From Verrucomicrobiia bacterium (GTDB lineage: Bacteria > Verrucomicrobiota > Verrucomicrobiia > Palsa-1439): a stretch of DNA of 64,000 nucleotides. The notes beneath the pieces were generated by a model. It ran no database searches, was not told the DNA's origin, and saw nothing but the letters and a program-made list of their open reading frames with translations. Both the position numbers and the translations under genes were made by a program. The stretch lies in the NCBI GenBank assembly GCA_049510215.1, contig JBEKZD010000002.1, positions 117,846-181,845 of the forward strand, in the 5' to 3' direction. This document shows, in pieces, positions 7,583 through 13,303 of this stretch; within the stretch, counting starts at the first letter, position 1, and each line of letters opens with the position of its first letter.

Positions 7583-10500
7583 ATGGCCAGAAATTCCAGC
7601 AATTTCATCCTGATCGAAGGCGCGCGACAGAACAACCTCAAGGGGATCAACCTCAAGCTGCCCCTCAACGAGTTGATCGTCGTCACGGGCGTCAGCGGCT
7701 CGGGAAAATCGTCGCTGGCGTTCGACACGATTTACGCCGAGGGACAACGCCGGTACGTCGAGACGTTCTCGCCGTACGCGCGGCAGTTCCTCGACCGCAT
7801 GGACAAACCGAAGGCCGACCGCATCGATGGCATCCCGCCATCCATCGCCATCGACCAGACCAATCCTGTCAAGACCTCGCGCTCCACCGTCGGCACGATG
7901 ACGGAGCTCAACGACCACCTGAAGCTGCTCTTTGCCCGCGCCGCGCAGTTGTTCTGCCGTGGTTGCGGCAAGCCGGTGCGACGGGACACCGCACAGTCGA
8001 TCTTCGATCGACTGGAATCCGAAATCCGAAGCCGAGTCAGCGAGACATGCGAAGCAAATCCGAAATCAGAAATCGCGATCACATTCCCTGTAATAGTCCC
8101 CAAAAACTTCAGCGAGGAAGAAGTCCGCGACTTGCTCGCCAAGCAGGGTTATCACAAGCTGGAGAAGCGTGGCGACGCGATCGAGGTTGTTCAGGACAAT
8201 GTTGTCTTCGCCGAGAAGAATCGCTCGCGCATCGTCGAATCACTCGAAGCCGCGCTGAAAGTCGGTCAAGGGCGCGTCAACATCTTCATCCCTCATCCCT
8301 CCTCCCTCATCCTTCGTTTTTCGAGCGACCTCCACTGCCCCGATTGCGACATTCACTACCGCGATCCCGTGCCGAACCTGTTCTCGTTCAACTCGCCCAT
8401 CGGCGCGTGCGAAGTTTGCCGCGGATTCGGTCGCACCATCGGCATTGACTACGGCCTCGTCATTCCGGACGACACCAAGACGCTCGCCGGGGGCGCGGTC
8501 AGGCCGTGGCAGACGGAGAGTTACCGCGAATGTCAGGACGACATGATGGAGTTTGCGGAGAAGCGCGGCATCCCGACCGATGTTCCGTGGCGTGAGTTGG
8601 CCGAAACGCAAAGGAAGTGGGTCATCGACGGCGAAGGTTCGTGGGAAGACCGGAAATGGTACGGCGTGAAGCGTTTCTTCGACTGGCTGGAGACGAAGAG
8701 TTACCGCATGCACATCCGCGTGTTGCTCTCGAAATATCGCACCTACATCCCGTGCCAGGCCTGCGGCGGCGCGCGCCTCAAGCCTGATGCGCTGCTGTGG
8801 CGGCTGGCTCCAGTCGTTACAATCGTTAAAACGGATAAAACCGTTAAAAGTACCCCGACACGTTTGCCTTCACCCTTTAACGGTTCTAACGATTTTAACG
8901 GTTCTACCGGCCTCACCGTTCACGACGTGATGTTGATGCCCATCGCCGACTGCTACACATTCTTCCAGTCGCTCAAACTCCCCGCGCCGCTCGACGAAGC
9001 GACCGATCTGTTGCTCGACGAAATCCGCACCCGGCTGCGGTACCTCGTGGACGTCGGACTCGGCTACCTCACGCTCGACCGCCAGTCGCGCACGCTCAGC
9101 GGCGGCGAAGTCCAACGCGTCAATCTCACCACCGCGCTCGGCACGTCGCTGGTCAACACGCTCTACGTCCTCGACGAACCGAGCATCGGCTTGCACGCGC
9201 GCGACATCAACCGCCTCATCGGCATCCTTCACCGTCTGCGCGACGCGGGCAACACTCTCCTCGTCGTCGAACACGACCCCGATGTCATCCGCGCCGCCGA
9301 CAAGATCCTCGATCTCGGTCCCGGCCCCGGCGAACGCGGCGGCGAGGTGGTCTTCTTCGGGACGGTGCCTGAACTGAGGAAGTGCAAGCGCTCGCTGACC
9401 GCCAAGTATCTTGTAACGCGGGCGTCTCGCCCGTTCCGTGGGTTGCGGGGAGCAATAAACAGAACGGGCGAGACGCCCGCGCTACTAATCACAGGCGCAG
9501 CCGAGCACAACCTCAAGAACATCGACGTCGAAATTCCGCTGAACCGGCTCGTTTGCATCACCGGCGTGAGCGGTTCGGGCAAGTCCACGCTCGTGCAGGA
9601 CGTTCTCTACAACGCGCTCTGCAGGTTGAAGCACAAGCCGACCGAGCAACCCGGCAAACACAAGCGGGTCACCGGCCACGAACGGATCGAGGACGTGGTG
9701 TTGGTTGACCAGTCGCCCATCGGCAGGACAACGCGGTCGAATCCCGCCAGCTACGTCGGCGCGTTCGACGCGATCCGCAAATTGTTTGCCGCCGCGCCGC
9801 TCTCGAAAGAGCGCAGCTACACGCCGGGCACGTTCAGCTTTAATTCGGGTGAAGGCCGTTGCCCCACCTGTCACGGAAACGGGTTCGAGCACGTCGAGAT
9901 GCAGTTCCTGAGCGACGTGTACCTCCGCTGTCCCGACTGCGACGGGAAACGGTATCGAGCCGAAGTGCTGGAGGTGAAGGTCGGAAGTAGCGCGGGCGTC
10001 CCGCCCGTTCCGTCCGGGCACAGCGAACGACACGGGCGGGACGCCCGCGCTACTAACTCCATCGCCGATGTCCTCGACATGACGGTCAACGAAGCCTGCG
10101 AGTTCTTCGCCGACCAGGCCGAAGTACTGCGCGTGCTCGAACCATTGCGGGCCGTCGGACTCGGCTACGTGAAGCTCGGCCAACCTGTGCCGACGCTCAG
10201 CGGCGGCGAAGCGCAACGGCTGAAACTGGCGGAGCACCTCGCACAGACGACAAACAAACGCACGCTGTTTCTTTTCGACGAGCCGACGACGGGCCTGCAT
10301 TTCGACGACATTGCGACGCTACTCCGCGCGTTCGAGCAACTCATCGAGCGCGGCCACTCGATCATCGTCATCGAGCACAACCTCGACGTGATTCGCGCTG
10401 CCAATTGGATCATCGATATCGGCCCCGAAGGCGGCGACGCCGGTGGCGAGGTCGTTTGCGTCGGCACGCCCAACGACGTTGCGAAGTGCGAACGGAGTCA

Positions 10501-13303: not shown

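Follow-up and report, generated by a model that had tools for sequence, protein, structure and literature searches.

A double-length UvrA of a Verrucomicrobiia bacterium, with REP-like doublets and short tandem repeats in its predicted loops

In this article, I will discuss a single gene, uvrA, in a stretch of 64,000 nt (hereafter the window) from a Verrucomicrobiia bacterium (GCA_049510215.1, contig JBEKZD010000002.1, positions 117,846-181,845 of the forward strand). The gene is genuine and under selection, and it encodes a double-length UvrA in which two non-identical units are joined in one polypeptide. I consider it quite probable that such a genuine, selected protein carries, as its loop insertions, the genome's own repetitive extragenic palindromic (REP) doublets and tandem repeats. 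An original prediction, made from the letters of the sequence, had claimed a tandem UvrA-UvrA of 1906 amino acids (aa) in a single frame, and this is what was found, with one open reading frame (ORF) at 7583..13303 and both halves above the cut-off of TIGR00630. It had also named a series of repeats within the gene, every one of which was recovered at, or within a few bases of, the positions given; however, it had gone unrecognized that they are repeats of the host genome itself, namely REP doublets with a GTAG tag and short tandem repeats.

The identical 1906-aa protein is held by NCBI as MGA2220573.1, 'MAG: excinuclease ABC subunit UvrA [Verrucomicrobiia bacterium]' (MAG, metagenome-assembled genome). 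The original prediction had left two questions, namely whether the junction between the units could be an artefact and whether long orthologues exist in related genomes, and both now have an answer. At the contig level, the same 1906-aa product is called in the identical frame on at least 24 independent contigs (of 44 index blocks, JGI and ENA samples), with the uvrA DNA being 100% identical across the three contigs compared; and long orthologues were found, 52 close ones and 80 kept distant loci of species-representative genomes, the inter-unit junction being read through in 52/52 of the former (alignment) and continuous in 80/80 of the latter. Purifying selection acts on both units, with ratios of nonsynonymous to synonymous substitution rates (dN/dS) of 0.21 and 0.15 that are equal in the two halves. 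When the product is divided at its middle into the halves that were used for profile and alignment searches, dN/dS is 0.21/0.17 (halves 1/2) in the comparison with an orthologue of 86% identity and 0.14/0.14 in that with an orthologue of 74% identity.

Both halves are recognized as UvrA by profile and alignment alike. With the TIGR00630 UvrA equivalog (cut-off 729.8), the bit scores are 956 for half 1 and 1040 for half 2, and the whole protein reaches 2004.5 bits with this model and 2070.4 bits with NF001503, passing the cut-off of 1147 for the latter, while single units stay under that stricter NF001503/PRK00349 cut-off (970 and 1081 vs 1147). Half 1 aligns end to end with the UvrA of M. tuberculosis (E 5e-230) and of B. 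stearothermophilus (E 4e-229), half 2 does so with 9gxk_A, the UvrA of C. thermocellum (E 9e-255), and the two units are 37% identical to one another. A motif scan returned four copies each of Walker A (aa 36/661/1031/1573), the LSGGE signature (aa 505/872/1409/1775), Walker B (aa 527/895/1430/1810) and the H-loop (aa 560/928/1464/1843), together with 13 CxxC motifs, 12 of which build six zinc modules from pairs at aa 125/252, 276/391 and 760/783 in unit 1 and at aa 1120/1269, 1293/1328 and 1685/1708 in unit 2. Judged by these motifs, all four ATPase sites and all six zinc modules are intact. The predicted two ATP-binding cassette modules and zinc fingers per unit are accordingly there, with Walker A/B, signature, H-loop and all CxxC pairs kept and the catalytic residues of the second half intact by motif scan, and the second unit, expected from about 10560, begins at about nt 10568 (aa 996).

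However, to speak of 'two complete UvrA units', as the original prediction did, goes too far. Unit 2 has 32 aa between its Zn2 cysteine pairs where an insertion domain of about 110 aa would be expected, and residues 305-425 of C. thermocellum UvrA (9gxk_A) have no counterpart in it; unit 1 has 112 aa between the same pairs, its insertion domain aligns with residues 326-451 of M. tuberculosis UvrA, and PF17755 matches unit 1 only. The UvrB-binding domain is distributed the other way round, being canonical in unit 2, while the module at this position in unit 1 is divergent, with a weak and partial match to PF17760 (27.9 bits, profile positions 63-105 only), and is nevertheless confidently folded in the AlphaFold model, where the predicted local distance difference test score (pLDDT) is about 87-92. 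This Zn1 module of unit 1 is conserved within the family, and its Zn1 cysteines are lost in Cupriavidus and Rubrivivax. The same domain asymmetry was seen in ten distant members, including those of Cupriavidus, Bordetella, Thauera, Manganitrophaceae and Spirochaetaceae, and to judge from these sequences the asymmetry of the units is conserved across phyla.

The AlphaFold models have a pLDDT of 79 and a predicted template modelling score (pTM) of 0.71 for unit 1, and a pLDDT of 81 and pTM of 0.74 for unit 2; the unit 1 model matches 3uwx_A, the B. stearothermophilus chain of the UvrA-UvrB complex, with Foldseek template modelling (TM) scores of 0.83/0.87. Sequence and models together point to a class I fold with class I motifs in each unit. 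Aligning each half had been suggested as a way of deciding its class, and both turn out to be nearer to class I than to class II, with class I chains at 769-851 bits versus class II chains at 440-599 bits for both units. I also tried class II as an assignment for either unit and ruled it out, since both have the Zn1 CxxC pairs with a 120-150-aa module between them and class I scores higher. Class IIa UvrA is without Zn1 and the UvrB-binding domain (PMC9328131), and class II proteins such as D. radiodurans UvrA2 (2VF7), DrrC and Ecm16 (7SH1) are likewise UvrA paralogues with an altered domain set; unlike class IIa, both units here have Zn1 CxxC pairs and a folded module predicted between them. 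With class I UvrA (B. stearothermophilus 2R6F/3UWX, M. tuberculosis 3ZQJ, C. thermocellum 9GXK), each unit appears to share fold and motifs (E 1e-230 to 1e-255), and it is from these proteins that the window protein differs in having its units joined by a linker (16-59 aa in the family), in the missing insertion domain of unit 2 and in the divergent module at the UvrB position of unit 1. The two units may pack like the subunits of an ordinary UvrA dimer, as an intramolecular equivalent of the UvrA2 dimer, and the product would then be a damage sensor that is covalently joined, asymmetric by necessity and equipped with one canonical dock for UvrB, which would be recruited via unit 2.

Nor is the fusion uncommon, as had been supposed. 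In a comparison with the best 120 protein clusters, all are 1737-2039 aa long with 99-100% query coverage, bar one 1613-aa partial call at 86%, and in a scan of species-representative genomes, which gave at least 599 confirmed stretches and from which the best 80 loci were kept, 80/80 of those kept match query residues ~1-1900 at 56-74% identity. Carriers among the kept loci belong to Verrucomicrobiia, Kiritimatiellia, Nitrospirota/Manganitrophaceae, Spirochaetaceae and Chitinispirillaceae, as well as to many Beta- and Gammaproteobacteria, and those in culture include Bordetella, Achromobacter, Cupriavidus necator, Pandoraea, Thauera, Rubrivivax, Castellaniella, Aquisalimonas and Teredinibacter. 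The 1906-aa UvrA belongs, by these matches, to a widespread family of double-length paralogues that databases annotate as plain 'UvrA'. Tandem UvrA as such is already catalogued, since NCBIfam NF001885 / PRK00635, an 1809-position 'excinuclease ABC subunit A' model that I take to be of chlamydial origin, is likewise a curated UvrA of ~1800 positions; membership in that long-UvrA family was considered and rejected, as the 1906-aa protein reaches 1147.2 bits vs a cut-off of 3054. A literature search on double-length UvrA found no study discussing it, and the sole trace was a 1995-aa entry in a supplementary table (PMC3733652). Some novelty is left in the domain asymmetry of the long UvrA family, on which nothing was found in the literature searched. 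The family is common, occurring in many cultured Beta- and Gammaproteobacteria and in Verrucomicrobia. With a single insertion domain and a single canonical UvrB-binding domain in each chain, the asymmetry leads to a testable stoichiometry prediction for damage recognition, and double-length UvrA could be used as a natural 'heterodimer' in which to tell apart what each UvrA protomer does.

Turning to the repeats, nine repeat-derived segments lie in frame within uvrA, plus a tenth small one, and by their sequence I read them as GTAG- or GTGG-tagged REP doublets (REPINs, i.e., REP doublets forming hairpins; families A, B and C) and tandem repeats of period 6, 7 and 9. The family A unit, GTAG-CG-CGGGCG-TCY-CGCCCG, occurs 12 times in the window vs 0 in 100 shuffles, usually as an inverted doublet whose outer ends are GTAG and whose units are separated by a spacer of 17-43 nt; uvrA contains three such doublets and the rest are intergenic, at 971, 4969/5007, 27352/27398 and 36334/36397. 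The family B unit, GTAG-G-GCGCG/GACGGA-..., has its stem around a common core that contains CCGCCGGG and forms doublets at 3233-3290, 11292-11357 (uvrA) and 26798-26865, with B-like units in glnS and gltX. Family C (GTGG-GAG-stem-CTSAG-stem) has only two units in the window, both inside uvrA, while families B and D have copies at several window loci. The arms of the inverted doublets are 21-34 nt long and 79-100% complementary, with RNA folds of -32 to -62 kcal/mol.

Alignment to the 52 orthologues and to solved UvrAs indicates that most of the named repeats are true extra residues, and the 74%-identical orthologue (L006) has empty sites, including a clean 66-nt gap matching AGTAG...CTACT at 9989-10054. 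However, the doublet at 9413-9485 replaces the linker between nucleotide-binding domains (NBD) I and II of unit 1 with no net gain in length. The argument that frame preservation across so many repeats suggests selection on a functional protein holds in part: selection is borne out by the dN/dS of 0.14-0.21, but the keeping of frame is largely a survivorship filter. The GTAG tag produces a TAG stop in one frame and leaves two stop-free frames, both of which are used. Frame GTA GCG CGG yields VARASRP...TGETPALL at the linkers and frame AGT AGC GCG yields SSAGVPP...HGRDARAT after Zn3. There are 16 REP loci in the window, and uvrA, although it makes up 8.9% of the DNA, has five of them (P = 0.011); half of the 16 are intragenic and in frame (five in uvrA and one each in era, gltX and glnS; for 5/8 in uvrA, P is about 5e-4). 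This genome is thus prone to in-frame REPs, and uvrA is their chief target. A simpler reading of the uvrA bias is that in a protein of such length, rich in disordered loops, there are many places where an insert can be tolerated, and that REPs already in place draw in more REP events. No internal sense-strand terminators were found among the REP hairpins, terminator-like matches being antisense only and at chance frequency; on that strand (-), the second REP unit of the linker-type family A doublets (9462-9480 and 12198-12216) is followed by a T-rich run, TCTGTTTG/ATT, and looks terminator-like.

The REPs in the three other genes can be described briefly. In era (5986-6918 +), a single family D unit (GTGGCACAGGCGTCCCTGCCTG) at 6446-6467 is in frame within ...SSGGTGVPACGRY... 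(GGTGVPACG), other copies of this family being intergenic at 1902/1939 (a doublet) and 35868. In gltX (18864-20306 +), which encodes glutamyl-tRNA synthetase, a family-B-derived segment at 19838-19905 (GGTAGGGACGGACCGCCGGGCC...GGCGGGCCGTCC) would be translated in frame as ...LGRDGPPGLRRAEVATATQAGRP..., and in glnS (24792-26777 -), for glutaminyl-tRNA synthetase, there is an in-frame single GTAG REP unit at 25061-25085, ...VGTAGSAVR....

The other elements in uvrA are short tandem repeats, and their total lengths happen to be multiples of three. The TCATCCC heptamer is found again at 20326-20356, a third TCATCCC/CTTCATC array in the short gap between gltX and the next + gene (20362-20952), and in glnS at 26278-26305, where (TCATCCC)n would be translated too. 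Such heptamer arrays recall the short tandemly repeated repetitive (STRR) sequences of cyanobacteria. The AT-rich element has inverted arms of 34 nt that are 79% complementary and carries one 9-mer more in strain L087, and the small 9-mer segment at 11200-11225 has another sequence, 6 nt shorter, in strains L086 and L087. Downstream of the gene, a hexamer/12-mer array (AGAGCAAGAGTA)x2.8 at 13664-13697, akin to the 12967-13001 tract, lies between the convergent uvrA and a PF04020 holin-like gene (13705-14088 -).

When the 52 orthologues are aligned with MAFFT, length variation is concentrated in nine sites, which together hold 89-302 aa per orthologue and 232 aa in the 1906-aa UvrA, leaving a remainder of 1620-1755 aa. 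These sites are found after the Zn2/insertion domain, in the NBD-I/NBD-II linker of each unit, after Zn3, in the inter-unit linker, at the end of the UvrB-binding domain, in an NBD-II loop and in the loop that follows the last signature motif. Stretches with pLDDT <50 in the AlphaFold models coincide with the inserts (aa 412-440, 614-628 [614-617, 626-628], 813-820, 983-999, 1248-1256 and 1522-1541), and by alignment and models together the repeats lie in loops and linkers with little predicted order, hypervariable from one orthologue to the next. At the unit 1 linker (aa 609-637, 9407-9493), an obvious REP is lacking in many orthologues whose peptides, for example VGTDRRAVR...GAPGGRALP or VAGTALRAVR, look like decayed GTAG REPs, and this suggests that the linker is REP-derived across much of the orthologue clade.

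Furthermore, these sites are not static, since the same sites hold different repeat families in different lineages, in a patchy distribution on the tree, with 6-39 of the 52 orthologues occupied at a given site. In L001, an 86%-identical relative, another GTAG family (GTAGGGCAAGCTTCCAGCTTGCC...) stands at the junctions CATCCGTTr/GTAG...GCGCTAC/TAATCACCGGG where the window has family A, its unit 2 linker thus carrying a GTAG family different from that at 12149-12221, and a family-B-type doublet takes the place of the window's GTGG family C. Closer still, strain L086 (96.6% identical) has a family-B-type doublet at 12352-12426 in place of family C, and in strain L087 family B has given way to a CCTCACCC...GGGTGAGG palindrome (11289-11364), so whole doublets are exchanged even between strains that are 96-97% identical. 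Such direct evidence that nearly identical strains exchange REP doublets like cassettes, at fixed codon positions, is the other part of this work that I regard as having some novelty left. Within uvrA itself, the doublets at 9413-9485 and 12149-12221 have a common spacer that occurs nowhere else in the 64 kb, where no dispersed subfamily was found as its source, and their peptides are identical at 24/27 positions vs 37% for the units as a whole. As the second linker of L001 holds a different family, the likeness of the two window doublets probably arose after the split from L001, either when one of them was copied to the other linker or when a rare subfamily supplied both.

In the REPs that are shared with L001, 176/180 nt are identical vs a background of 88.6% (P about 5e-6), with the 9987-10053 doublet at 96/99 nt against the same background. 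In the shared REP codons, the synonymous rate (dS) is 0.037 vs 0.33 for the background, i.e., 9-fold lower, and dN/dS is 0.65; taken together, the high ratio and the low dS mean that conservation is at the level of the nucleotides and not of the peptide.

Part of this has a published precedent. In Opitutus terrae, the bacterium in which intragenic GTAG REPs are most frequent (PMC3733652), Oter_2709 is listed as an 'excinuclease ABC, A subunit' of 1995 aa (Di Nocera et al., 2013, BMC Genomics 14:522, Additional file 3, PMC3733652). Its GTAG-19 insertions are one REP with the peptide GARASRP (aa 638-644) and one doublet (aa 1601-1623), and the canonical 999-aa UvrA of the same organism, Oter_3168, has REP doublets at aa 224-239 and 440-462 (PMC3733652). 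A cultured verrucomicrobium therefore has both a double-length and a normal UvrA, each decorated with REPs. Oter_2709, known from its length and REP peptides alone, is like the window uvrA a verrucomicrobial double-length UvrA with in-frame GTAG REPs; its GARASRP lies in the same NBD-I/NBD-II linker and frame and is practically the same peptide as TRASRPF of the window, and a second REP doublet is likewise found near aa 1600. By back-translation, the O. terrae REP peptides HGRDARAT and GTGVPPV would imply the same GGGCGTCCCGCCC stem-loop core as that of family A. It is thus clear that the REP decoration of verrucomicrobial uvrA, including the long form, is already published, just as the double-length architecture is already catalogued. 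However, the window gene has five REP doublets of three families plus repeats of period 6, 7 and 9, compared to the one single REP and one doublet in the table for Oter_2709, and the paper does not comment on double length, site re-use or strain-level exchange (PMC3733652).

REPINs are REP doublets mobilized by REP-associated tyrosine transposases (RAYTs) and have been described as extragenic (Bertels and Rainey, 2011, PMC3116915; PMC3337134; Di Nocera et al., 2013). In contrast to these, 8/16 of the window loci are inside genes and in frame, although intragenic GTAG REPs have been documented (PMC3733652). In other respects the window doublets are like REPINs, consisting of two inverted REP units (a GTAG tag plus a short GC-rich stem-loop) with a spacer between them that form a single long hairpin, and being dispersed, lineage-specific and multi-copy. 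Rickettsia palindromic elements are palindromic repeats that sit in frame in surface regions of conserved proteins and are tolerated there, and they are old and largely immobile. The likeness to the uvrA REPs is one of functional analogy and not of membership, as phylum, families (RPE-1 to RPE-8 in Rickettsia) and sizes differ and the consensus is unrelated, and, unlike those largely immobile elements, the uvrA doublets are exchanged between strains that are 96% identical. The Rickettsia elements are cited by Di Nocera et al. (PMC3733652).

How would the repeats have come to be there? They may arrive by the usual REP/REPIN route, i.e., RAYT-type transposition and/or REP-REP recombination, and would be translated as loop filler; copies that break the frame or strike a structured region would be removed by selection while the others persist, and resident REPs might then act as landing or recombination pads, such that the same sites are rewritten repeatedly. 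Several observations weigh against this account. A RAYT / Y1 transposase had no match among the 10 small unassigned ORFs scanned in the window, a scan that was not exhaustive, and the mobilizing enzyme is therefore assumed; the AT-rich 9-mer element has no copy outside uvrA within the 64-kb window; it is from the frame and the avoidance of stop codons only that translation through the repeats is deduced; the low dS of the shared REPs could come from homogenization with other genomic copies or from recent arrival, and is also compatible with a role at the DNA or RNA level; and in L087 (ENA ERZ25039512 contig_117673) a single extra T at 9464/9465, inside the REP doublet of the unit 1 linker, shifts reading into the other stop-free REP frame and splits uvrA into calls of 711 + 1213 aa, which could be a sequencing error or a rare natural null allele. 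This frameshift lies away from the inter-unit junction, where one could otherwise imagine that two adjacent uvrA genes had been merged by an assembly or sequencing error near 10.5 kb. Beyond the fact that the junction is a low-complexity heptamer tract, and as such error-prone in principle, nothing in favour of such a merger was found, and it has next to no chance of being correct: the contig copies with their identical product and DNA, the close orthologues and the distant loci rule it out, and there is no requirement for a start codon or ribosome-binding context at the junction, with frame being kept across linkers of 16-59 aa. The L087 allele could also be taken as a sign that the gene is a decaying redundant paralogue, with a canonical uvrA elsewhere doing the work and relaxed constraint letting the repeats pile up, and here one could add that the number of repeat-derived segments is unusual for a single gene and that O. 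terrae, with its 1995-aa and 999-aa UvrA, makes redundancy plausible. However, I judge decay to be very improbable in view of the dN/dS of both halves, the intact catalytic and zinc motifs and a full-length identity of 56-67% across phyla; the canonical 999-aa UvrA of O. terrae bears REPs as well, meaning that decoration is no mark of decay, and the frameshift is a 1-nt indel in 1 of at least 24 contigs, the names of the contigs in that assembly being suggestive of long reads.

A more serious question is whether the REP doublets are functional and not tolerated passengers, with hairpins that regulate expression through mRNA stability or ribosome pausing, or with Arg/Pro/Gly-rich loops that tune the repair protein, in the latter case perhaps providing a switchable repair capacity or mutator state as Di Nocera et al. 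speculated. The nucleotide-level conservation described above, both in identity (176/180 nt) and in the 9-fold lower dS at a dN/dS of 0.65, would fit such a role, as would the extreme stability of the mRNA-internal hairpins and the concentration of five of the eight intragenic loci in uvrA; moreover, a REP bias to repair genes and tRNA synthetases was reported by Di Nocera et al. for other species, with repair genes over-represented among REP-bearing genes in several of them, and mutator effects were speculated upon (PMC3733652). However, most orthologues are without an insert at a given site and the families interchange, which argues against a sequence-specific role, era, gltX and glnS carry in-frame REPs too, which makes this a genome-wide phenomenon, gene conversion with other genomic REPs, or recent arrival, would lead to a low dS just as well, and a terminator-like feature on the sense strand is absent, all of which leads me to regard a function of the doublets as unlikely. 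A related view takes them as actively maintained, exchangeable cassettes, such that, in an expressed ATPase, the same loop codons would be rewritten again and again by RAYT or recombination. This may in turn adjust how strongly an obligately asymmetric single-chain UvrA, with a dock for only one UvrB, is expressed or how active it is. This view draws on the doublets swapped between 96%-identical strains, on a doublet copied between the two linkers and on the 9-fold lower REP dS, and I hold it to be possible though doubtful; if true, it would amount to natural, mobile-element-driven loop engineering in a so far uncharacterized branch of nucleotide excision repair. As a record of REP/REPIN entry into coding sequence, uvrA is unusually dense and well resolved, with stop-free frames only, disordered loops only, site re-use and strain-level exchange, and this is material of use for REPIN dynamics and for how proteins gain new loops. 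For annotation, it is worth bearing in mind that REP-like peptides inside conserved proteins are real sequence and not errors.

Table 1. Features of the double-length uvrA, with positions in the window (nt) and putative assignments from profiles, alignments and predicted folds (kcal/mol, RNA hairpin energy; z, its z-score).
Feature	Position	Strand	Remarks
Double-length UvrA, complete ORF	7583..13303	+	ATG start, 1906 aa plus stop; six-frame ORF list, UvrA equivalog hidden Markov models
UvrA unit 1 (aa 1-976)	7583..10510	+	NBD-I, NBD-II, three zinc modules, insertion domain; divergent module at UvrB-binding position
Unit 1 module between Zn1 CxxC pairs (aa 125-255)	7955..8347	+	UvrB-binding-domain position and predicted fold, divergent sequence
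Heptamer tandem repeat (TCATCCC)x3.9	8286..8312	+	Translated ...IPHPSSLIL...; extra residues common to 17/52 orthologues
Unit 1 insertion (DNA-binding) domain between Zn2 CxxC pairs (aa 276-394)	8408..8764	+	PF17755, 47.3 bits
AT-rich inverted pair of 9-mer arrays (TAAAACCGN / TTTAACGNT)	8815..8909	+	33-aa insertion after Zn2/insertion domain
Family A GTAG REP doublet (REPIN) = unit 1 NBD-I/NBD-II linker	9413..9485	+	-57.6 kcal/mol, z -9.3
Family A GTAG REP doublet, after unit 1 Zn3	9987..10053	+	66-nt (22-codon) insertion; -60.6 kcal/mol, z -10.2
Inter-unit linker, hypervariable (aa 977-995)	10511..10567	+	16-59 aa across orthologues; pLDDT <50
Heptamer tandem repeat (ACCAATC)x4.7, inter-unit linker	10559..10591	+	...TNHQSPITN...; related peptide in orthologue P0011
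UvrA unit 2 (aa 996-1906)	10568..13300	+	NBD-I, NBD-II, three zinc modules, canonical UvrB-binding domain, no insertion domain
Unit 2 UvrB-binding domain	10970..11293	+	PF17760, 90.3 bits, profile positions 1-106; matches isolated fragment 4dfc_B
Small second TAAAACCGN-type 9-mer segment (AACCGGTAAA), inside unit 2 UvrB-binding domain	11200..11225	+	Tenth segment
Family B GTAG REP doublet, end of unit 2 UvrB-binding domain	11292..11357	+	-49.7 kcal/mol, z -4.3
Unit 2 short connector between Zn2 CxxC pairs (aa 1293-1331)	11459..11575	+	Insertion domain missing here
Family A GTAG REP doublet = unit 2 NBD-I/NBD-II linker	12149..12221	+	-61.5 kcal/mol, z -9.2
Family C GTGG-tagged REP doublet (palindrome), unit 2 NBD-II loop	12365..12415	+	Palindrome 12362-12418; -31.9 kcal/mol, z -2.9
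Hexamer tandem repeat (AGAGCA/AAGAGT)x5.7, after last signature motif	12967..13001	+	No secondary structure

Two further observations concern the surroundings of the gene. In L001, a RES-domain gene and a partner of 175 aa, likely a toxin-antitoxin pair, lie at 8834-10550 between uvrA and the PF04020 gene, and the corresponding position in the window, 13303-13705, holds only about 400 bp of non-coding DNA. Farther along, at 32101-32179, two adjacent 8-nt arrays, (ATGGAGTG)x4.5 and (CAATACCC)x4.1, are found near the 3' end of an ORF that ends at 32222, and their period of 8 is not frame-neutral.

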